DNA of 63,961 bases, counting the filler, from Intoshia linei (taxonomy: Eukaryota > Animalia > Orthonectida), in the NCBI GenBank assembly GCA_001642005.1. It is 6 parts of 6 records of this genome, joined end to end, with 100 filler letters (N's around TTAATTAATTAA, not from the genome) between each part and the next. Parts side by side here need not be neighbours in the genome. Positions count along the whole stretch, not along the records: positions 40,952 to 54,697 come from LWCA01000999.1; 5 more parts are not named here. One strand, written 5' to 3'. The notes below the pieces were generated by a model. It had not been told where the DNA came from. It saw only the letters and a program-made list of their open reading frames with translations, and searched no databases. Numbering within the stretch: the first letter of the stretch is position 1; each line of letters opens with the position of its first letter. Below, in pieces: positions 40,952 to 63,961 of this stretch. The translations under genes were made by a program, and so were the position numbers.

Positions 40952-41622
40952 AGAGAAGATGGACAAAGAATCATTGTAAGGTGTGCTAATAGAGTTAATT
41001 CTGTTGAATATATTAGGATTTTGAATAGGTATATCGATGAACTTCATAATACACGATATATTTTCCAGCATGATAGAGCACCAGGCCATAGATCATGAAT
41101 GACAAACAACTTTATCAAAAATAGATACCTAAATACGCTTGATAGTTGGCCCCCACAAAGTTCAGATCTCAATATAATTGAGCATGTATGGGGTATGTTT
41201 AAGATAAATGTTTCAAAAATTAAACCAAGAAATTTGGAACAACTTTGGACTGTTACAAGAGAAGAATTTTATAAAATACCCGATGAATATATCAAGAATT
41301 TATTCAAGTCTTTACCTAGAAAAATAAAATCTGTTATTGGTTCAAATGGTGGTAATACCAGATATTAACAATAATAAATTTCTTTTTTAATTTTTCTTCG
41401 AAAATGTTGCATTTGATTCAGAAGTGCCTAAAACTTTTGCACGGTCATATTTTAACAATTTCTTGTTTCCATCGTTTCTATGTACATTTTACATATTTTG
41501 TTAATCGACACATAATTATCTATGAATTTTAATCACTTGAACAAAATTTTAAGAAGATTCGACACATCGTTATATTAATATAGCCGTTTAAAGGGGGTTC
41601 CTAAAACGTTTGCACGGGTCTG
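40952..41622 (+). mobile_element. Tc1-family transposon 3' half with IR/DR-type right end
   Basis: FQHDRAPGH, WPPQSSDLNIIEHVW, SLPRKIKSVIGSNGGNTRY*; direct repeats cctaaaac.tttgcacgg at ~41427 and ~41600; ends ctg|TA. Confidence 0.9.
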
Positions 41623-41964
41623 TACCATCAAATATATCTTAATGATCCTAACTGTACCAATCACCTTAACTCTCACCATAAACCTCAAGAACTGCAATCT
41701 CTCTACCTTAAAATTAACAAAATTAATATCGCGATGTCAAAGTTCAAAATGAACGAACCATTCTTTAATCAAATAAGGTAATAATCAACCAATAATGTTC
41801 ATGGATCTTTTACCATGATTTTATTGTGACGATGTACAACAAGTATCAAATAAGCCCCTTGATAAATTGAACTCGAACCAAAATACTTCAAAAAAAAAAC
41901 TTTCTAACTTTCTTTTTCTTTTTTCTTTTTTTTTTTTTTCTAACTTGAACCTTTTAAACACTTG

Positions 41965-42145
41965 AGATGTCACACCTTTCATTTGAAATAAGGAAGATTA
42001 CAATTTATTTAACAAAGGATACCCGCAGACAAAAATCGCAAAGCTGTCAATATTGACATGTGCTGTTAACGAAAATATTAAGAAACATAAGCAAGATATT
42101 CCTCTCCAAGATAGAAAACGACTTGGCAAGAGCTTGAAAAAAGTA
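41965..42145 (+). mobile_element. Possible Tc1 N-terminal HTH remnant
   Basis: MSHLSFEIRK..GYPQTKIAKL..pattern with frameshifts. Confidence 0.4.
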
Positions 42146-42785
42146 ATATATGTAATAATACTTGTACAGTAGAATCTCTTTAATTTAAAGTCAATTTCAT
42201 TGAAATACTCTTCATTTTAAATATTCACATGTTCATTTTTATATGAATTTTATAATTGATTTTGAAAATATTTGAATTATTTTATTTACATTTTATATTA
42301 TTAATTAATTTTATTATTACGAAATTTTTTCATTTAAAATTTAGTGTCTCATAGAATGAATATTACTTATGATTTATTTAGTTAATCTTATATCTTATAT
42401 TAATTATCTTAGCTAATATTATAGAGAATTAAATCGTATCGTTGTTCGATATTCGATATATAATGATTTAGCTGCTGTTAAAAGTTATTTGGAATAAATT
42501 TACATTTATTTATTTTTATTAGTCATAAAAACGTCAAATTAAAAATTGTAAATAATCATTGAAGCAAACTTTATAAAACAGAATTATATGACAACTACTT
42601 GCTCATACTTAATATGAGGCTGTCATATTTGATACAGCACTGTCTATATTTGATACGAAAGTGAAATTTCAATATGATCAATTTATCTAGATATAACCAA
42701 GAAATATTCAATACATCGTTATAACTAAACTATAGTCTAAACTAAGTCGTATAAACTTTATTCTATACACAGTTACTACTTAATA

Positions 42786-43296
42786 TTGCTCACACACGCT
42801 ACAATGAATTTGAATAGAGCTTTGAATTTGGCGCAGGATTGGGAAGATGAAGTTGATCTAATTAATGAAACGGAATTAAATACAGTGGATAAGGTAGTGT
42901 CGAGTCCGATTTTTGATACGATGGACGTAAATGATAGTTTTTTAAGTTTAACCAACTTTACACGGCTGGAAATATTAACTTTATATCACCGATTTATCTC
43001 TGTCTATAACTCACACCGTAAATTTCATGTAAAAATTAATTTTTAATTTGTTCTAGCACTCGATTCATTATTGATGTATATGTTTTGAATTAAGACTAAA
43101 CACGTATCCAATTTTATGTAAAGTATTCTAACTAAAAACAACCGACACAGTCAAAAAACTCCTCGACCGTGTGAGATACCCTCTTTTGGAAAGTTTAAAA
43201 ATATAGTGGTGGAGCGACAGAAAATGGCCAGTGACAATAGAGGGTAGGTGGCCTCATGTCGATTTATTGGGAGACAACACAGATCGTTGAGTGGTT
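42786..43296 (+). mobile_element. Decayed Harbinger/PIF-like (DDE_Tnp_4) transposase N-terminal part
   Basis: LTNFTRLEILTLY, ALDSLLMY, LLDRVRYPL, LLGDNT (first catalytic Asp region). Confidence 0.5.
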
Positions 43297-43325
43297 CAAC
43301 ACAGATCGTTGAGTGGTTCAACACA
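43275..43325 (+). repeat. 22-bp tandem duplication, 2.3 copies
   Basis: caacacagatcgttgagtggtt x2 + caacaca. Confidence 0.9.
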
Positions 43326-43871
43326 CAAAGAAAGAAAAACCTTACAATTAATGCTATAGTTCCTGATTATGCATAACATGCAAAAGCAATGAACGAATAT
43401 TCTTTATAAATAAAACGCAACCCGAAACCAGATTTGACGCTTGAAGCCATGGAATCTTATAGGCGTTGCAGACAATAGTGTATCATGATAAAGACATCAA
43501 TGCTATATATTGCTCACAGTTTAAAGAGTTAAAAAGAAGGTGTTATATAGTTTGAAACAACATGTATTGTTATTTTGTGATTTATCACCAGATGGTTTTG
43601 GACGGAAAATTGATGTATTTGTTTGCAGGTGACGATTCAGTTTTGTCGAATTACTTGGAACACGTTGAACTCGATGTCTAAGTATGATAAGTCACAAGGG
43701 CTTTTGGCGATACACTATGATAGAATGATTATGAAATCTTTCGGGATACAAAAATATTATCGTGATTTGTGGTTTAATGGACATTTTTTAACAAAAATAT
43801 ACGATCCAACTACTAAGATAAAAGCATTAATACCTTTCCAACGTAAGTCTGGTGATGCTTCTACTTTTATT
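43326..43871 (+). pseudogene. Endogenous viral element: nege/virga-like (Martellivirales) RdRp fragment
   Basis: Across frameshifts: NEYSL*IKRNPKPDL, ALQTIVYHDKDINAI, ELD/SKYDKSQG (motif A), LWFNGH, KALIPFQRKSGDASTF (motif B). Confidence 0.9.
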
Positions 43872-45800
43872 TATTACTCTCAGTGAATTTCTACGTGGAT
43901 CAATCCCTATAATGGGTGGTACCCCTAAAAAATTCGACCCAAAGTTTCGTATATTCATTCGTCAAATCATTGACCTTCGTGCGCATCAATCCATTTTAAC
44001 CGACCTTTCTTCAAAATTACTCAAAGCCATCAACAAAATTCGAATTTAATGTTCTGGATTACAACAACGTGACATCAACGAAAGAGAAACCTCCCGATTC
44101 AAAACAATTCAAAGTATTTCGATATATCCAACTTTTGCGGCAGCATTAATTCGGGAATAAGAAATATGTTAAATCGTATTGTAGGATCAATGACTAGTGT
44201 AAACAAAGCTTTTCTTTGGTTATCCAAAATTTTGCGTATGGGCTTACTACAAGTCGTTTCACCCACTGTTCCAAACACTATTATCTCTAACTTTCCAAAT
44301 TCAATACCATTCACTATAGGAGCATTAAGTGTTCAACAGGGCATAAACCAAGCAGTCTGGTCTCTCCTTACCGTTGGTTTATCTTCACTTTGGTTAACAT
44401 GGTCTTATATGAGATGAAAGATATCGGAACCAGAATTGGTTTAGAACTTTCACTCAAAGAGTCCGTGTTCTCTATACTTAAAATTTTTTCGAATAATGAT
44501 GACAGTCCACTACAATTGATGGATTCCAACTCACAATGATGACAAAAGGTTTGGCACTCAACTTCCAAGATACTTTGGACACTCAGTATCTTTTTAGTTC
44601 TGCAATTAATGGAATATTGGAAAGAACCGCTAAGAGTAGTGCTTTTGAAACGGGACCACATCAAACGTAGTTCATGAATTGCTTACTGATCATTTATTAT
44701 TATATATTTGACATTCGTTTTTCTACTTCTTGGCATAGCCCTATACCTATTGAAAATTTATTGACCAATCATTTGGAAAATGTTGGAAAGAAATGAAGGA
44801 AGTGGAATCTGAACTTAGGAATACAACAGTGACGACCTGGAATATGAGTCTGAACTAGAGTGTGATGACATTGTTAAATTTTCAGATACCCTGCACTATT
44901 AGTGGTATTGGTTCGAAATGGACAATTGGTTCAACATGGAACTTGAACGCGCATATTTACACTACAAAACTGAAGGTACCCGAATCAAGAAAATAGAGTT
45001 TAATCAACAGTTTCTCAACATAAATAATATTACTGACACTAAATATAGAATTCTCAGTAGTCCTATTCTTTTCACGACTGTTTTCCAATTTCACAACGAT
45101 CATATAACCTCTACAAACCGTAATGTTCCTGGTTTTGGGGACAAAATTATCTACACATAAAATTTCATCAAATATGCTTAAACTCCAAATTCCGGGGGTT
45201 GGAAAAACCGTTTGTAGAGACCATATCTTTACTGACACTTTTGCTGTATGGGACGAGTCATTTAACGCCGCAAATGATAATTATTGCTATAATTTGCTGT
45301 CTCAGCATTTTGACACTTATGCTCACCAGAGTGTTTTTTAAGTGCTGACTTTCTCCAGATGGAGATACAAAATGGAGATGAGAGTGCATTCCCACTCAAT
45401 ATAGCTGATTGTCACTCAAAAGGTACTACTTTCTTCATGTCAGAATTTTTAGTTTGTACAAGTAATGTAGACCCTACAGAAAATAGCACTTCGTTTGGTT
45501 CAGTAATGGTCGACCCAATTGCTTTTTCGAGAAAACTCGATATTTGTGCAAATGTTGCACGTATAGGTTCCTCTAATCCCGTTTTTGACAATAATTCCAT
45601 TTTTTTTTTTACTATAAGAGTAGGAAAATGTCTAACTAAATTAACAGTACGCTTACAATTTTAAAATTCATTATCATAACTGAGAGAATTGAAAAAAGAG
45701 AATGCCATCACATTTGGTTCGTTATTCATAAACTATAAATTTGACAACCCGGAAATCGACACGTTAATAATAGACGAAACCTTTTATCTAAGAAATTAAA
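43872..45800 (+). pseudogene. Endogenous viral element: picorna-like nonstructural polyprotein with 2C/SF3 helicase (upstream limit uncertain)
   Basis: PGVGKT (Walker A), HFDTYAHQSV../ADFLQ (B), AFPLNIADCHSKGTTFFMSEFLVCTSN (C), DPIAFSRKLD; frameshifted. Confidence 0.8.
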
Positions 45801-45829
45801 ATCTGATTAAATAAAAGATGACAATTATA

Positions 45830-46330
45830 AAAAATGGACTATTATACTTAAAGATCAATATAAAAAACGAGTATTTTTTAGTTTATAAAATTAGGGAACT
45901 AAATTTTCCAATTAAATGGTTACACTGACCATTTTTAGCAAATTATACTCAGTCCTCTTTTTGCTATACCGAAAGAAAAATATACTTGTATCATCATCAG
46001 GAATCCCGATGCATGAATTTATTTAAGATCTAATAGATTTTTTTGAAGCTTATAATGATACAATGCCATCTGTATCAGCCACGAGAAACATCAAATATTT
46101 AAAAAATGTTTAGGTCACAAGAATAAAATGGATCGTTAAAAGAAAAAATATATTTATGGTAGTTGATGAGTCCCAAAGAAACAAATTTGGCTACTTAAAT
46201 ATCATGATTAGTTTATTTCGGATAGGGTATATGCTTTTAAATGTATACCTTCGCAGAATTCAGTTAATGCAAATTTTATGTGCACAGCCATCAATAATGT
46301 AATTCGAGAGTTATCAATAGAACGAAAAAA
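45830..46330 (+). mobile_element. Decayed hAT-related transposase fragment
   Basis: SSGIP..MPSVS, IFMVVDESQ..YLNIMI, SVNANFMCTAINNVIRELSIERKNF. Confidence 0.4.
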
Positions 46331-47089
46331 TTTCAGTTTTTTTTCAGTAATTGGGATTGCACCTGTGGTCAATGATAGGCAAAAAGATCTCTTGCAAAAT
46401 TTAAGAGATGTTTAAATGTCACTAAAATTGAAGAAGCATTGCAAAACCTAGTATGCACCATGAACAATATTAATTGAAATGAACTCATTTGGATTTTTTA
46501 TTATCTATGTATCATAGAAAAAATAAATTATATTATATTTGTATCTTTATAATTTAGATTCACTGTGATTCTACGCATTATTACATAACCAAGGACCATA
46601 TGAGCTTTTATCCAAAATATTTGTCAAAGTAAACGTTTTTTATATGCGATTCGACACACAATTTTAAACTGAGTTTGTATACTACAATATATTCTTCTAT
46701 AAATTGGTATAACGACTCTTTTTTACATACAATTTATTAAAATAATTTTTTCCTTTAAGATTTACGATAAATGTAAACGGTTGGCCCACAGCATTTAGTC
46801 GCCTCAGTTTTCGTAATAGTTCAATTTTTATTATAATATATAATAGGGAATAGTTTGTTTAAATAAGATAAAATTACGAGAAAAATATTATAATAACCAA
46901 ACACTTAAAATATGTAAATTAAAATTATATTGGGCAACCCCTCACAATAATTTAGTTAACAATATAATATTCAAATTTCCCTTTAAAATGTGGTATGAAA
47001 TTACTCATATAAATGGTCATATCTGCTAAATTATATGCAATTCATATTATGAATACATTGAATAAAATCATTACATTAATTTAAATATG

Positions 47090-47617
47090 AAGAGTTTTGG
47101 CGAGTTCGTGCCTGCAATGATCTCGACCCTAAAAACTCCGTAGAAGATCATCAGATGCTTTTAGACCAGATTGCATGGCACGAACGGTGAAATTTCCAAC
47201 TAAAATTATGGTTCAAGGAGCAATTAGTGTATCTGGGCCCGGCTCTATATTTGTTATAGAGGGTATAATAAACAAACATAAATATATTGACACATTAAAA
47301 AACTTTTTAAATGATCGTCCAAGTTTTCTAAAATATGCATGTTTTCCACCCGATTTGGTTCCATGTCATACATATTATAATATATAATATTCTGCACGGT
47401 CAGTTAAATATTTTTTTGATTCCAACCAATGGAAAGTATTACCCTGGCCCAATAATTCAGTAGATATGAATCCCATTGAAAACGTTTGAAAGGTATTGAA
47501 AGATGAAGTACATCATGTTCATATTTCGTCAAAACAAGAATTAATTGACCCGACAATATGGGTTTGAAATAATTTGGACAAAATTCAATTATTATGCAAA
47601 AACTTAATAATTGGAAT
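47090..47617 (+). mobile_element. Tc1-family transposase DDE remnant
   Basis: RTVKFPTKIMVQGAIS..GPG, DLVPCH, VLPWPNNSVDMNPIENV*. Confidence 0.85.
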
Positions 47618-48590
47618 TTACTGCTAATTAGAATTTTGAATAAAACAAGAGTAAGATCACACTAATCTATAGATCTAACAATGGGACTATTTGATAAAGA
47701 CCAAGTTGGTGGAAACAGAGATTTGCATATTGTCATCTGAATTTAGGAAATAACAGTATGTTGAAGAATGTTTCTTTACCTCATTGGCTGAGTGTACAGA
47801 CAATGAAATGTTTAAAAGAAAGATAAATATGATTTTCTCATTAAAAGATGGAAGAAGAACTAATATGATATGAGAATATTTTAATTTCAACGGATCACAC
47901 TAGGTGGGGCCAAACATGAATACAATAATGTTTTCTTATTTGGCAGCTTATTGTACCAGACACACCACAGAAGCCTATCTTCCAATAATCATCTGTTGCT
48001 TATTACAATACAAAGTGTTTGAAGTTCCCCCTTGGCTAAATGACTTATACGTAAGATGTAATGCTGCATATACATTACTTATATGCAGATCGCACATGGG
48101 TCAGGAGATATTTCATGGAAGTTTGTCTGTGATGCATGCTTTTTCGAAGACGTCAATACAATATATAAGAGCAGCCGCAGCAAAACTGGAAATAGATCAA
48201 TCTATAGCTCGTCATGTGATACATACAAGTTCTAGTCTAGTGACTAGTAATAATGTGGCTATAATAGAAAGTTTCACAGTGGCAACTCCGGATTATATAT
48301 CTATGGTAACGACAGCTGGTGTATTAAAGTGTAAGAAAGTACACCTTCTGACTATTGACACCATGCAAGAGATTAAGAGCAAAGTAATGATTATCTATAA
48401 GAACTTTAGTGAGATAATCCATTATTTTGGAATAAAAACAACATAAACACAAAATGTCTACTCATAGTATTGAATTTAATTCAAAATATATCTCAAATGA
48501 TTCTATTGGCAGTTTTAACGATTGGCAGATAAAAACTCAGATAAGTTTATCTTTAATAAAAAGATTTATTGATTTGCTGATATCTGGTTC
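47618..48590 (+). pseudogene. Endogenous viral element: bunyaviral (arena/nairo-like) L polymerase core
   Basis: LFDKDQVGGNR (premotif A), STDHTRWG/PNM (A), KVFEVP, HMGQEIFH (B), VTSNN (C), FGIK (D), IEFNSKY (E), all in the correct order. Confidence 0.88.
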
Positions 48591-48732
48591 TAGGGTAGTG
48601 ATATCATCGGATTTTTTACTTTGTTAGACACAATTAGTGTTGGCGTTAGTGTTAGTATCGATAAATTTTTGAATATTTTTAATATCTATTATTTTTTTAT
48701 TTTATTTTTAACTTTATTTTATTATCGCCAAA

Positions 48733-48920
48733 ATGACAAATAAAAGATCTAAAGTATGGAATTATTTTACATTAGTAAATAGTAATGAAGCTAAATGCAC
48801 AAAATGCTATACAATTGTAAAATGTTCAGGAACTACCAGTGTTATCACGTTAAAAATGTCCACAATATTAATTTGAAAGAAGATATAAACCAAACAAAAT
48901 TGCGAAGGATAGATTTTCTT
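48733..48920 (+). mobile_element. BED zinc-finger remnant of a hAT transposase
   Basis: KRSKVWNYF..AKCTKC..SGTTS. Confidence 0.7.
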
Positions 48921-48924
48921 GTTA

Positions 48925-49522
48925 CAGTGCACCCCTGATAACGAACCCTCTTGTTAACGAACTTTAGTAATTAGCGACTTATTAATCAATCATTATAGAT
49001 AAATGCGATAATAAAGCTATATAAGTATTAAATATACACAAAACTTTATTTTTGCACGTGACTGTTTTGATTTATAATTAATTTAATTATTTTTTCAATA
49101 ACGAACAACGAATAGATTATATTAATTTTTTTAATTTTTATTTAACTTTCCCCTTAGATAATGAACATATAAAAAAAATAATAATGGCAAGAAAAGGATT
49201 CGACTAACCTACTACTAAAAGAAAAATGAACTCATTTCATTTGCAGAGAATAATCAAAATTACAAACAAAGAGATTTAGCTGAAAACTATCAAATATCTC
49301 TTGGAACAGTTAATACCATTTTAAAAAGCTCTTCCGTTATCAAAAACTTTCGTCATGAAATCAGGAAAATGAGAAAAAAAAGAAAGTCCATTGTAGATTT
49401 TTTGTCTAGGAAGCAATAAATTAATTTTAAATATTATTTGTTACATATTTTGTTCGTTATCTTTCAATAACGAAGTTGGAAAAAAATAATGACTAAATGT
49501 TCGTTATCAGAGGTGTGCACTG
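48925..49522 (+). mobile_element. Tigger-derived MITE
   Basis: TA|CAGTGCACCCCTGATAACGAAC and GTTCGTTATCAGAGGTGTGCACTG|TA TIRs; HTH remnant KQRDLAENYQISLGTVNTILK. Confidence 0.85.
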
Positions 49523-49914
49523 TATTATTCTACTTTATAAACAAAAATCTATTACTAATCCATTTTCATTATGGCAATAAGGTTTTGAATGTACAGTCTA
49601 ACTCGTCAATAATGAATACCGTAAATAATGAACGAGTTTTGGTCAAAATTCATCCCTTCTATAGAAAATTTCTTCATTCATTACTTATCGTGATTTTTTA
49701 ATTATGAATCTGAAATATCTGAATATTCACTAAATGTAATGTTAACAGTTTTGAAATATGTCACGTAATTATTTTTTATTAGATATGGATTGTCAGTCTT
49801 TTTGGTTTATAAAAAAGACTAACAAGCCAAAATAAAAAGTAAGTTGTATCTACAAAAATGTTAGTGAAAATGAAAATAATCATTGAAATTTCTTAGTTAG
49901 TTAGGAAAATTTTC

Positions 49915-50630
49915 AAAAGAAAGAATAACGTTATTGTTTTGCGTGTCAATGACCGGTGAAAAATATGATATTCTTTTGATTGGTATTGCAAAAAACCCCA
50001 GAAAATTTAATTAAATAAATTTCAACAAATTAAATTTAGATTATAAAAATAATACCAAAGCCTGGATGTCCACAATTATTTTTGAGCAGTGGTTACATAA
50101 ATTTAATTTAAAAATGAAAGACAAAAATAGAAAAATACTTCTGACACTTGACAATGCCCCTGTACACCCTAAGCACTGTAAATATTCAAACATTAAGATT
50201 TATTTTTTCCCACCAAATGTAACATCTAGAATGCAACCTCTCGACCAAGATATAATAGGTGCTTTTAAAAGTCATATAAAAAATTATTGAATACAAAAAT
50301 CTTAATTCGATCAATTAATAATGAAACTTCTTTTTTAAAGTGTCTCAAAGAAATTAAACTTTATGACGCCATTTTACTTATCATTGAAGCGTGGAAATCC
50401 ATATCACCAAAAGAAATATCTAATTGTTATATAAAAAAAGATAGAATTATCAATGCTGGATTATGATGCACTATTTAATATTAATGAGCCTTCAATTGAC
50501 ATCGATTATATTCCATATGATATTGAATCAAACAATATTTCTGATATCATAAGTCCAGAAGAATCACTTGTAAATATAAATGAAAACATTTCTTTGCCAA
50601 ATAATAATAATATTAGAATAATTTTTTTCT
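49915..50630 (+). mobile_element. Tigger/pogo DDE_1 remnant
   Basis: KAWMSTIIFEQWL, ILLTLDNAPVH, FFPPNVTSRMQPLDQ. Confidence 0.85.
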
Positions 50631-50639
50631 ACACCCCGA

Positions 50640-51820
50640 CTTTTAAAATTGTTGAACAATTCTCATTTCCTTCAAACTGACGCAACGTACAAGCTGATTT
50701 ATCAGGGGTACCCAGTCTTAATGATAGGTAGAAGTAATATAAATCGAAAGTTTCACCCTGGCACTATTGCGGTCACAACAAATGAAAAATCGGATGATTT
50801 TAAATTTTTATTCCAATCATTGATTAAGGGAGTTGGTAACAATAATAATTTAATGGATCCAAAGGTTTTAGTAGCGGATAGTTCTTCAGCAATTACAAAA
50901 GCATTTGAAGAAGTTTTCATTATGGAAAAAAAAATATATTGTTTTTTCATTATTATAAAAACTATCACGAAACATACTAGCCTTTGCGCTATACCTAAAT
51001 GTGACAGAATGGAACTTCGTCGAGATATAAATTTTCTTCAAATTTCTTCGTCGGTTGATATCTACAACGTCGCGAAGAATTTATTTCTGACAAAGTGGAA
51101 TCAGTACACTCAATTTTGTCAGTATTTTATTAAACAATGGATTTGCAAAAGCTGGTATGAGGGCGCAGTTTTACATATTCCATCAATAAACAATTCTCTA
51201 GTGGCCACTAATGGTGTAATTAAACGACAAATGACCCTTAGGGAGCACATTCCACTGAATCAATTTTTTAGTGTAATATGTAAGGACATTTTATCGATTT
51301 GGTCTCTAGATAGGAAACGTAATTATTTATTTGTTTAAACATAATATAGCACATTTAATCAATATATTCATTTTTTAGAATATCTCCAATATTCAAGTAA
51401 TTCCAAATTAGAAACTAAAGAATAGACTAATGCTTATTGATGGCCAAAAGAAAATCAACTCATCCGCAAAAAAACATTAACCAATGATGTGACTAAATGT
51501 TATATAATTTCTGTGATGAAAAATGTTGATTTGGATTACGAAATTAACACATATCAAGCTAAATCCTGGAAAAATTTCAATCATTTCAAGGAAAGCATAT
51601 CATTGGTTATTGTGGTAATTATAAATAAATTAAAATGGGAAAAAGCCACATGTACTTGTTCAACTTATCTGAAATGTTATACCTGCAAACACAGTTTGGG
51701 TATGGCAATTAGATTGAAGTATGATTGATGTGTCGTTCCTATTGAAGCTAAACTCTTACCTTTACGTCAAAAAAGAAAAAGAGGACGACCCAGTCTTGCC
51801 AAAAGAGCATTATATTATCA
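50640..51820 (+). mobile_element. Mutator/MULE transposase remnant with SWIM finger
   Basis: LQTDATYKL..GYPVL.IG, LVADSSSAI, CFF, NNSLVATN, CTCSTYLKCYTCKH. Confidence 0.85.
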
Positions 51821-52855
51821 ATGGTTATTATTATGTTAATATTGAGACATTGTATAATACAGCCATACAAACTCAAATCCTCGGCGGGCTGCATTATTTG
51901 TCAAAATTTTCAGGCGGCCGCATCTTAATTTTTTTACAGATTAAGGGTAGGTTTTTAGAGATTTTTTAAACGACGTTTAAAGGGAGGTTATTATGGAATT
52001 TTTATTTAACCTAAGTTTAAGGAAATTTTGTGAAAGATAACGTTTTTGAGTAAAATTCGCCACTGATTGTATATAATATATACAAAGTCGTGCGAGCCGC
52101 ACATAAATTTGAAACTGAAACGTGCGGGCCGCAAGTTTGACATGCCTGGTATAATATATACTATATTACAGTATACTTACGTACGGTATATGAATTTATT
52201 ATATTATATTTGTTTAGAATCATTACTTACAGACAATAATTACATGATAATATTAATTGTATAATACATTTTTACTTATTACGAAAAAATGTTTAAAAAC
52301 GAAAAAAAAAAACACTGATTTAAATGCATTCGAATAAGGATTGTTAAAAAATTAGAATGTGTTAATGTTAGAATTAATGTAATAGTTGATACATCTCCAA
52401 ATAAACTACTTAAATAAAATTAATTGTTAAAATTTAATAATTAATTGACGTTATAAAGTATTGTTATATTTCTTTAAATAAGTGCTAGTTATTTATCATG
52501 TGACATTTCCACTATTCAGATGCTAATTTAAGTGCTAAGAAGAATTTAAGAACTCTATTTAAGTGCTAAATGTTGGACTTTAAATGACGCGTTAAATCAT
52601 AGCCTTTAAATAATAAATTCTTTGAATTCAATCTTTTATGTTATGTTAAAAATTTTGCCAATTTCTGCCAAAAAAGGTCATGCAGTTCTATAACTTTGAT
52701 AGAGAAGCAATTTAAATTGAATTGTGGAAAAAAATTTACATAAAATCAAAAATATGGCTATAAGAGAAATTGAGTTAGCTCACAAAATCTCATAAAAGCC
52801 ATTACATACAATACCTATCTAGCATCAATTTAAAATAAAATATAAAAAAACATAC

Positions 52856-52961
52856 TTCCATAGATGGAGTAAAACAATAAGTTAATTCATAATCTTCACA
52901 GTATACAGGTAAATGAGCTACAGAGTCCATTGGAAATGAATCACCGGCAATGATTACAATT
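52856..52961 (-). CDS. NHP2: Isolated exon of NHP2-like L7Ae protein
   Basis: ag|IVIIAGDSFPMDSVAHLPVYCEDYELTYCFTPSME|gt; flanking NHP2 exons not found nearby. Confidence 0.65.
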
Positions 52962-54171
52962 CTAAATTATAATTAATTCATGCTTTCGTTTTAAAAGTCA
53001 GTTGTAAATATATCTATAAAAAGTTTACACAAATTATCATCTTTGAGTTAGTTGCAATGAATTTTAAAAAAATCACAGCTAATAGTAACTGGAAATTTAA
53101 CCTACACAAAAAAATTAATTTCACAAAGTGACGCTGTTAAATCTCAAAGATTGTATAAAATCTTATATTTTAACAGAAAATATATTTTTAAGATAATGAG
53201 TTAAGTTAAGTAGATAATTCTAAGTAGTAAGTAGTAAGTGAGATAAGTAGATAGATAGATTAAGGTAAGATAAGTCTGTTGAGAAAAAGAAATGTAAATA
53301 GAGTAAGTAAGTCAAAAAATCGTTTTTTTTATTTGGTAACTATTTTATAAAAACAAAAATTATTTATTAAATTATTTTTTCGGGTTATAACTACAGTAAA
53401 ACCTCCGTTATTTTCCCGGTTAATTTATATTTAAATAATATTATGATAGTAAAATTCTGTAATTCGGCCAAAATTTTTCATAGTACATTTTTATTTTTTA
53501 AACCACGTAATATAACAGCCAACTAATATTAATGTTATATTTAATATTAATCGTATATCCTGTATTGTTACGTTAATTAAGTAACTAAAATAACCTATTT
53601 TGATTATAATTATTGGATGAAACTTTTGAAACCATAGTTAAGTTGACAATTACAAATTTTCACTGTTGATAACTGTCACTTCTTTGGCAACTAAGATGTA
53701 CTGTTTAAAAATTATCTTTATTATGATAACAAAATGTTATACAGTGAGACAATAGATATTAACATTTTAATCATACATTTTTGCAAACCAAAACAAAATT
53801 TGTTTTAAAATATGCATTTTATAATCTATGGGGGTATGAGGGGGGAACAGAACATATTTCTAATTGAAAATTAGAATTGAAGTTAAAAAAATAGCAGATA
53901 CATTTTATTTAAAAAAAGCTCCAAAATTTGATAATTTATAAAGAAAAAAATCAACAAATCAAAGAGCAGACCTAATTGAAAATAGAGTTTAACGAAATTG
54001 TGTCAAAACTAAATCAAAAATGTATTTAATAGGACAGTAAACTGTACATTTTTAGAGGAAGACTATGTGATATAAATATATAAAATGACCACAGATTTTA
54101 TTATAGATGCAGTGAAACTTTTTTAAAATATACAAAGAATGCAATACAATAATAATGGTCCACAATAAAAT

Positions 54172-54438
54172 TTAATACATAACGTCACTATATTGACTGG
54201 ATAATGAATTATCCAATTCATTTCTCATAGATCTTTCCCGGTAACGATCAGCAGATTGTTTACGCTTCAATATTTTTTCTCGTTCTCGATCTTTTCTGAT
54301 AAACATGAGTCTGATTTCATACATATGATCCATTTCATTTAAGGCGTTTCTTGATATTAATTCATTTGTTAATAAAACACATATATCGAATTCAATGTCA
54401 AAGTGAATTCTGTCGTATGTGTAAACACCAGATAATAT
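54172..54438 (-). CDS. Unassigned exon, ~88 open codons
   Basis: ttaactttag acceptor then ILSGVYTYDRIHF..KDREREKILKRKQSADRYRERS..MY*. Confidence 0.4.
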   Translation of the reverse strand: MLSGVYTYDRIHFDIEFDICVLLTNELISRNALNEMDHMYEIRLMFIRKDREREKILKRKQSADRYRERSMRNELDNSLSSQYSDVMY

Positions 54439-54797
54439 CTAAAGTTAAAAATAAACATAGCATAATCTAGTTACTCTATTTATACGCACAAGCGGACAAA
54501 TTATAGTTTTTACACTAAAAAACTAAACAATATAGTACATAAAATTGTTCAGGGCTCAGAAAAATGAAAGAATTTTGATCTAAATCTTTGTATATAAAAA
54601 AGTCTAACAATCCAACAAAAAAATAAAAATTTTTTTATTCGATAATATATAAGATTCAGAACAAAGTTTACCTAAAATTGTGGCTATCGTTGAAAAANNN
54701 NNNNNNNNNNNNNNNNNNNNNNNNNNNNNNNNNNNNNNNNNTTAATTAATTAANNNNNNNNNNNNNNNNNNNNNNNNNNNNNNNNNNNNNNNNNNNN

Positions 54798-62814: not shown

Positions 62815-63430
62815 GTCTTCTAATCTATATGTACCCGGTCCAATAACTTCAACAATTTTTAATGGATCCGACATAGAATATCCCTTTAATTGCGGACGAC
62901 CCACCTATACATAATCACCAATTGTTAAATGCCTTTCTTTGGTTTTATCATTTTCAATCAATTTATTTTGACATTTTTGTACATTCCTTCTGGCAATAAG
63001 TTCTGCCTGCTCGGCACTCACTGAACTAGCTTTCAATTTGCACGACAATCGAGTTTTCAGACTACTGTCATGTAACAATTGCGATGGAGATACTCGCGTA
63101 GTTGAGTGGGGAACAGCTCTATACATTATTAAAAACCGATTTTACATCCTTATTTTCTTTTACACCAATTCGCAATTTTTCTTTAACCGTTTTAGTGAAC
63201 CTTTCTACCAATCCGTTACATTGAGGATGGTTGTTTGAAGTGTACCTTGGTGTAATACCACGTTTATTCAACAAATTTCGCCATTGTTCCGATTTAAATT
63301 GGGTTCCATTATCCGACAAAATAATCTTTGGCAATTCTTCCCGTGCGAAGATATCTTCCAGGAATTGCAGAATAACTTCCGTTGTAGTATCTTCGACTAA
63401 TTTAAATTCAGGATCCGTTGATATTGACAT
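62815..63430 (-). mobile_element. Ty3/gypsy integrase remnant
   Basis: LPKIILSDNGTQF, HPQCNGLVERF, YRAVPHSTTRVSPSQLL, GPGTYRL. Confidence 0.9.
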
Positions 63431-63961
63431 TTTTGATGCTGTATGGAATTACAATTTTTATATTTTTACTCTATCCCATATCTTGACAGTAGCTTCCAAA
63501 TTTTTACCGATAACGTAGATAACACAGAAACAACGGAATTGTCATTTATTTTCACTAATTCTAACTCTGTGGAGTCGTAGGTACCCATAGCATGTTCAGA
63601 GTATCCACGTTTACACTTCTTAGCATCACGGTTTGATTTTATGGGACTAATGTAACTACTACGGTAATTTACTAGTCTGTTTTCTCCAATAGTACCTAAT
63701 AAATTTTTTTTCTTCTCTGTATTTATCTACTAAATCTAGAACGGTGGCTGCCATTTTTGACCTATTTTATTACATTTTTAACAATCTTGAGTTGTTTATC
63801 TAAAGTTTTGTTCAATAGATTACAATAATTGTAAAAATTTAATTTTTATCGTAATATCTTTATTTTATAAACTAAATAAAGTGATCTAAATATTAGGTCG
63901 TTTTTTAAACAAAATTAAAAAGTTTATTTGATTACATTAAAAATAAAGTTATATTATAAAA

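Follow-up and report, generated by a model that had tools for sequence, protein, structure and literature searches.

The genome assembly of the orthonectid Intoshia linei, a tiny marine parasite, contains an endogenous viral element that is real and dead; its host phylum is an unexpected one. It is a decayed fragment of a bunya-type L gene, at positions 47618..48515 (+) of the 63,961-nt stretch of DNA analyzed here (the window), and it reaches from premotif A/F to motif E, or ~300 of ~1,750 codons. The account that we hold to be probable is that this dead L fragment derives from an undescribed Jiangxia-like virus, was reverse-transcribed and likely entered the germ line of Intoshia linei, and was then trimmed by transposons and left to decay. 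The window is made of six contigs joined by spacers of the form N44-TTAATTAATTAA-N44; the fragment and two further virus fossils lie on the same 13,746-bp contig (40952..54697), and genes outside 40952-54697 are not physical neighbors of the fragment.

Motifs, boundaries, and decay of the L fragment

The initial annotation had reported a series of L-polymerase motifs in this region. A search of the translated frames recovered all of them, at or within a few bases of the claimed positions, on the + strand, in three frames and in polymerase order: LFDKDQVGGNR (47687-47719), STDHTRWG (47887-47910; a motif A piece, D-H-T-R-W-G, whose frame differs from that of the premotif A piece), GPNM (47907-47918), KVFEVP (48012-48029), HMGQEIFHGS (48093-48122; motif B), VTSNN (48240-48254; at the motif C position, with the Asp pair gone), FGIK (48426-48437), and IEFNSKY (48469-48489; motif E). 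Premotif A/F and motifs A, B, C, D, and E are ordered and spaced as in an L protein of the Bunyaviricetes type.

The pieces can be compared one by one with the clade of L proteins that the fragment matches (see below). The premotif A/motif F piece (K-D-Q-V-G-G-N-R; 47669..47725, +) is 60-68% identical to clade proteins in tblastn alignments, and both the premotif A/F motif and motif A (D.[TS][RK]WGPN) are present in 69 of 69 clade cores. The longest open stretch, of 180 codons (47904..48443, +), holds the end of motif A, motif B (HMGQE), motif C (TSNN), and motif D. The motif E piece (IEFNS; 48439..48513, +) is in another frame and is recognized by the clade profile by itself (iE 8e-4); EFNS is found in 59 of the 69 cores. 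Similarity continues between the motifs, with 37% identity to the environmental protein P0014 across 262 aligned columns. The GC content of the fragment is 0.33, versus 0.27 in the non-viral part of the contig.

The start of the fragment at 47618, as first annotated, fits the behavior of other Tc1-like repeat copies, which cease matching at 47613-47617. Its end, previously placed at 48590, has to be drawn back to ~48515: a multi-copy host repeat starts at 48516, and most protein matches stop at 48464 or 48513. A Tc1 remnant reaching to ~47666 was considered and ruled out, as the divergence of Tc1 copies sets in at 47613 and alignments to clade proteins start at ~47600-47621. No further piece of L was detected within the 63,961-nt window, where 60 of 61 clade proteins match solely the 47618-48515 region.

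The reading frame is broken by four frame changes (near 47725, 47870, 47907, and 48440) and by two in-frame stops (at 47663 and 47751). At the site where 66 of the 69 clade cores carry [TV]SDD the Intoshia fragment reads TSNN, and the catalytic Asp pair is absent. Having neither an intact SDD nor an open frame, the fragment cannot encode a working polymerase. Because it is decayed, a live virus co-sequenced by accident is excluded.

Placement in the Jiangxia mosquito virus 1-like lineage

A phmmer search with the main frame of the fragment against 1.84 billion protein representatives gave 47 matches, the best of which was P0014 (E 5e-32, 39% identity). The named proteins among the 47 were those of Drosophila Sunshine bunyavirus, the Beihai crab and barnacle viruses, and Edhazardia. 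Forty-two of the 47 were already among 53 clade proteins found independently, by a protein search queried with one of the loci that match the fragment. A motif-B pattern search yielded 76 loci, including 12-kb nairovirus-type segments and many unnamed contigs; 37 of these loci match 47580-48600 by tblastn (E 2e-5 to 1e-32). The complete-looking unnamed contigs are 5.2-5.6 kb long, L segments of the matching clade mostly measure 5.2-5.7 kb, and the median length of the 48 clade proteins that exceed 1,600 aa is 1,761 aa. Among the named members of the clade are Jiangxia mosquito virus 1, Drosophila Sunshine bunyavirus, Beihai blue swimmer crab virus 2, Beihai barnacle virus 6, BSF uncharacterized bunyavirus-like 1, along with Bat faecal associated bunyavirus 7. 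The list also includes the Edhazardia aedis protein EDEG_00360 (EJW01769.1, P0047), and the other relatives are mostly unnamed environmental contigs without a host.

A profile built from 47 of the 53 listed clade proteins scored the fragment at 162 bits, compared with a maximum of 4.5 bits in 200 shuffles. Two clade relatives, L040 and L047, match Pfam Bunya_RdRp (E 1e-9 and 4e-11). In phylogenetic analysis the fragment, entered as a single-frame translation with X at the breaks, fell inside the clade every time: two quick trees, with 91 and 44 rows, gave it SH-aLRT 99 each, and a careful tree restricted to 28 of the 91 rows (LG+G4) gave support of 100/100. Named representatives of Mypoviridae, Wupedeviridae, Phenuiviridae, Leishbuviridae, and Discoviridae were neither in these trees nor among the named proteins of the 47 matches. 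By nesting and by best matches, sequence evidence assigns the fragment to the unclassified Jiangxia-mosquito-virus-1-like bunyavirus lineage, which likely infects invertebrates. The clade profile and the trees bear out the earlier description of a decayed L-polymerase core of a segmented negative-strand virus in an invertebrate assembly, and the proposal that the virus is undescribed agrees with a nearest relative of 39% identity.

General-purpose searches were uninformative. A Pfam scan of the three frames of the fragment gave no RdRp and no Arena_RNA_pol match, PDB sequence searches gave nothing relevant, and ESM Atlas returned low-score HTH clusters alone (<=0.83). We attribute these misses to distance, since five clade proteins (three of them from named viruses) likewise lack a Pfam family. 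A related-loci search queried with the 180-codon open stretch also gave no relative.

Jiangxia mosquito virus 1 appears as "unclassified segmented virus 1," with an L protein of 1,889 aa, in the accessible portion of its description (Li et al., 2015; PMC4384744), and is treated as an unannotated family-level group in that of a later survey (Kaefer et al., 2019; PMC6932829). The word "Jiangxia" is absent from the accessible text of the 2024 ICTV update (PMC12282299), in which accented spellings could escape a search. Six unnamed L-like contigs (L053, L070, L096, L035, L085, and L102) form long branches outside the arenavirus, nairovirus, and Jiangxia-like groups; they are possibly further undescribed lineages.

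Within the clade, the fragment is a long branch with no close sister, and its position shifts between trees. The Edhazardia protein was its sister in the first quick tree only, not in the two later trees.

Host of the donor virus

The donor virus may have had as its host a microsporidian or protist that lived within or next to Intoshia, in which case the fossil would record close contact and not orthonectid infection. Consistent with such a source, the microsporidian Edhazardia aedis has a 1.12-Mb contig that bears an annotated clade member of 1,693 aa (P0047), and the rest of the clade consists for the most part of environmental contigs that have no host. In the accessible part of the report on BSF uncharacterized bunyavirus-like 1, its authors say that this virus may infect components of frass (PMC10460066). 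The topology test does not reject the Edhazardia protein as sister of the fragment (p-AU 0.64); however, sisterhood with the environmental P0014 is not rejected either and fits equally or better (p-AU 0.79), the place of the fragment in the clade varies between trees, and several named members come from arthropod samples. Moreover, germ-line capture usually requires viral RNA within the host cell. We consider a donor of this kind unlikely. Germ-line integration in Intoshia linei is probable, and the contig likely records past infections of Intoshia linei itself.

Flanking repeats and genomic DNA runs

Both flanks of the L fragment are multi-copy repeats in the DNA runs. On the left lies a Tc1/mariner-type transposase remnant (47133..47613, +; Pfam DDE_3 E 1e-4, under the curated cut-off), copies of which have a depth of 40-115 in the DNA runs and end at 47613-47617, the viral junction. 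On the right lies a multi-copy repeat terminus (48516-48565, +), with 12 loose ends at 48516 in DNA-run contigs, and beyond it a BED zinc finger (48748-48840, +), which scores 21 bits with Pfam zf-BED against a cut-off of 20.6. The right flank as a whole (48516..48840) is probably a hAT-type remnant, the hAT label being our interpretation. No retroelement sequence, poly(A), or target-site duplication was found in the flanks, and a repeat search gave no terminal repeats or duplications bounding the fragment. In the assembly, then, RNA-virus sequence is contiguous with host DNA, decayed, and flanked by repeats, as an endogenous viral element would be. The candidate junctions of the L fragment are known from the assembly alone and are unconfirmed.

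The genomic check made use of contigs from three public DNA runs of one sample. No contig of these three runs covers 47666-48479, while the flanks are covered. In run X1, one contig (depth 15, 69 letters on its short side) passes from 47290 to 48955 by way of nine intervening letters and thereby omits the whole fragment. The BED piece and the 3' half of the Tc1 remnant are lost in this join as well, which is why we take it for an allele with a later deletion, not for an empty site, although it may instead be a join of paralogous repeats or a chimera of the assembly. Elsewhere on the contig, the single-copy stretch 42532-46023 is covered by one 3,154-nt DNA-run contig (depth 14.7), and over this stretch the DNA run differs from the window by 7 substitutions, 51 gap letters, and a 345-nt deletion. 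Run X1 appears to carry another haplotype, because it also differs elsewhere, including by the 345-nt deletion in the helicase fossil described below.

These data bear on whether the fragment belongs to the Intoshia chromosomes or to a chimeric contig joined at repeats, or to some other AT-rich organism in the sample. An origin of the latter kinds would agree with the missing coverage and the skipping contig in the DNA runs, with the repeats on both flanks, where assemblers err, and with a contig on which Pfam scans of 40952-54697 recognized no host gene. On the other hand, other parts of the contig too are represented in the runs by a different haplotype, so the missing block is not special; rare variants can be lost from run contigs, and records are filtered out. 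The composition of the contig also matches that of gene-bearing contigs: trinucleotides of its non-viral part correlate with those of the gene-bearing contigs of the window, which encode a rhodopsin-type receptor and a tetraspanin, at r 0.993-0.998, a weak test that is driven by AT content. Finally, the junctions break repeats mid-way or at a terminus, like real insertions. We regard a location outside the Intoshia chromosomes as improbable.

Two further virus fossils on the same contig

Two further RNA-virus fossils lie within 4.5 kb of the L fragment, and all three lie within 5.3 kb. The first is a frameshifted virga-like (alpha-like, RdRP_2) polymerase fossil (43266..43900, +; Pfam RdRP_2 E 5.5e-19). 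It is matched by 70 of the 70 fetched loci (best E 4e-40), to which it is ~60% identical across motif B. An exact 22-nt tandem duplication is seen at its start (43275-43318). The second is a superfamily-3 (picorna-like 2C) helicase fossil (45192..45562, +; Pfam RNA_helicase E 0.003, under the cut-off), detected with iE 1e-9 by a profile made from 47 picorna-like helicases. None of 120 loci matches the helicase fossil by plain tblastn, and a search for protein relatives with its single-frame translation, which holds many X, found none. Both fossils lie on the one DNA-run contig of depth 14.7. The 345-nt deletion of run X1 (45156-45500) cuts through the helicase fossil, and the GC-richer stretch upstream of it (44000-45190), which gave no match, may be more of the polyprotein.

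Pfam scans of the contig also revealed a second Tc1 remnant (40958-41245, +), a pogo-type DDE_1 remnant (49916-50287, +), and a MULE+SWIM remnant (50670-51716, +). All eight elements with a protein match (three viral fossils and five transposon remnants) are on the + strand. The chance of such co-orientation is 2 x 0.5^8 = 0.008 if the elements are independent, and for three of the eight the Pfam match falls short of the curated cut-off or barely reaches it. On the minus strand, Pfam scans over the contig yielded just two matches, each under the cut-off. Two unconfirmed pieces without a Pfam match (41987-42169 and 42741-43043) also read on the + strand.

The open stretch and gene model A3Q56_06061

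The sole close protein match is the public Intoshia linei gene model A3Q56_06061 (P0001). Exon 1 of the model corresponds to 47928-48386, and the model splices the viral stretch to the MULE transposase remnant; in all it spans 47928-51422, comprising the viral open stretch, an unrelated middle exon, and the MULE remnant. It is probably a prediction artefact.

Taken at face value, the model implies that the open stretch was co-opted as an exon of a host protein, as a fusion with MULE. There is a GT donor just after 48386, and all six lesions of the fragment fall outside 47904-48443. In simulations with six random lesions, a clean run of 180 codons occurred in 3% of cases (five lesions: 6%; seven: 1.4%), which is mildly unusual and too little to argue for a protein role. 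Co-option is opposed by the loss of the catalytic Asp pair that nearly all relatives (66 of 69) keep, and by a fusion partner that is a truncated transposase. A3Q56_06061 furthermore has one member, with no relative in 5.8 billion proteins (316-2,000 aa), and an allele without the whole region appears to exist. We consider co-option as an exon very improbable.

Relation to Arenaviridae and Nairoviridae

The initial annotation had assigned the fossil to an arenavirus/nairovirus-like virus. That assignment gives way: profiles of these families score at shuffle level, tblastn gives no matches, and the trees nest the fragment elsewhere. The short motifs in common (K.QVGG.R, D...WGP, and MGQG) are real. 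Still, an arenavirus profile (25 sequences) scored 5.4 bits on the fragment versus a shuffle maximum of 5.1, and a nairovirus profile (24 sequences) 4.8 bits versus 3.5. When arenavirus L stretches were compared with the window by tblastn, 0 of 26 matched the region below E 0.3; the sample consisted of 26 loci obtained with one arenavirus motif-A pattern, and one of them, L003, matches Arena_RNA_pol. The 12-kb nairovirus-type L stretches likewise gave no match to the region below E 0.3.

In topology tests, forcing the fragment together with nairoviruses was rejected (p-AU 0.0003) and forcing it together with arenaviruses was borderline rejected (p-AU 0.04). Because the free tree is sub-optimal, the true likelihood gap exceeds the tested one. 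A branch of 2.2 changes per column (100/100) parts the clade from both families. As the fragment shows neither a profile match to Arenaviridae or Nairoviridae nor a grouping with them, the arenavirus/nairovirus reading is largely refuted, and a fossil of a member of either family is scarcely credible.

Origin and possible role

Reverse transcription by a host retroelement is the established route by which non-retroviral RNA viruses become endogenous. By this route, the viral L RNA would have been copied into DNA by the reverse transcriptase of a host retroelement, and the L cDNA would have been joined into a transposon-rich locus. Both ends would have been trimmed by later transposon insertions or deletions, and neutral decay would next have introduced the four frame changes and two stops and erased the catalytic Asp pair. 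Retroelements do exist in the Intoshia linei genome, since a remnant of an LTR-type retroelement integrase (rve, E 4e-9) is present at 63122-63448 (-), on a separate 1.1-kb contig.

If any role remains, it would most likely be exerted as RNA. The locus could act as a trap with a single direction: its viral and transposon scraps lie in one orientation, and reading of the opposite strand would yield small RNAs antisense to them. Transposon and virus fragments do share one coding strand, as in a unidirectional cluster, with 8/8 on +. The flanking elements are DNA transposons, which counts against likeness to a mosquito cluster; mosquito piRNA clusters are rich in LTR elements. Retention of the fragment in a one-directional small-RNA locus can be proposed tentatively, with the odds somewhat against it; otherwise it is neutral debris. 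A broader proposal, that orthonectids, which rank with the most simplified animals, keep a flamenco-like antiviral memory locus (a strand-biased cluster of pieces from three unrelated viruses with presence/absence alleles segregating), is rather doubtful.

Novelty and significance

Endogenous viral elements are common in arthropods, as stated in the accessible part of Li et al. (2015; PMC4384744). In the literature, subscription journals and unseen supplements or EVE catalogues aside, we found no description of this locus or of a fossil of the Jiangxia-like lineage, no virus cluster described in orthonectids, and no described virus of the phylum. The class of element to which the L fragment belongs is ordinary.

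Through fossils of this kind, virus lineages that are known from metagenomes and lack a host can be tied to real cells. The Jiangxia-like lineage, with 53 relatives, is a large one; it is unclassified, and Pfam often fails to see it. Copies in an orthonectid and in a microsporidian suggest that the hosts of the lineage may be parasites or microbes inside the arthropods in which it was first seen. The three RNA-virus fossils within 5.3 kb also offer a first look at the orthonectid virome, and their co-orientation provides a concrete locus for asking if piRNA clusters derived from viruses occur beyond the arthropods. If the memory-locus proposal is true, such clusters would extend from arthropods to a spiralian parasite, and the family-level Jiangxia-like lineage would gain its first genome-anchored animal host.

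Comparison with known systems

The fragment resembles the Jiangxia mosquito virus 1-like lineage in its motif set and spacing, in 30-40% identity over the core, and in its nested position in three of three trees. It differs in that the Intoshia copy is broken, is reduced to 300 codons, lies in animal DNA, and forms a long branch; no named member of the lineage comes from a spiralian. Edhazardia aedis EDEG_00360 is alike in lineage and in being part of a cellular genome assembly (35% identity, E 2e-15). Unlike the fragment, it is near full length (1,693 aa), its motif C is intact, and its host is a fungus-related parasite. EDEG_00360 may represent an endogenous L gene that is still intact, and it may hint at the hosts of the lineage; we found no published description of this L protein.

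Arenaviridae and Nairoviridae, placed in the order Hareavirales in the accessible text of the ICTV update (PMC12282299), share with the fragment the core of a segmented negative-strand L protein and a similar premotif A, motif A, and motif B. They differ in giving no profile-level match to the fragment and in forming a separate, well-supported branch, and their L segments measure ~7 kb (Arenaviridae) and ~12 kb (Nairoviridae), whereas those of the matching clade are mostly 5.2-5.7 kb.

An RdRP gene of viral family was previously noted in the Intoshia linei proteome, with no accession in the text or 7 supplements as accessible (Pinzon et al., 2019; PMC6396948). That report and ours concern the same species and an RNA-virus polymerase sequence acquired from viruses. 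According to the same accessible text, however, a near-complete Pfam/CDD domain was required there, while our fragment and five clade members have no Pfam RdRp, and a filter of that sort would probably have passed over the fragment. Because the fragment lacks a Pfam RdRp match, the gene of Pinzon et al., as far as its accessible description goes, is probably a locus other than the L fragment.

The contig as a whole invites comparison with the flamenco-like cluster of Aedes aegypti, which the accessible part of Aguiar et al. (2020; PMC7161354) describes as made up of TE-EVE hybrids that share a coding strand and as the source of a long antisense transcript and of phased piRNAs. The Intoshia locus differs from what is described there in that only 13.7 kb of it are seen, in being defined from sequence alone, in its DNA transposons, and in its orthonectid host. 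As far as that account goes, the two are alike in that pieces of unrelated RNA viruses are interspersed with transposon remnants along a single coding strand, and in having a virus piece that abuts a transposase remnant.
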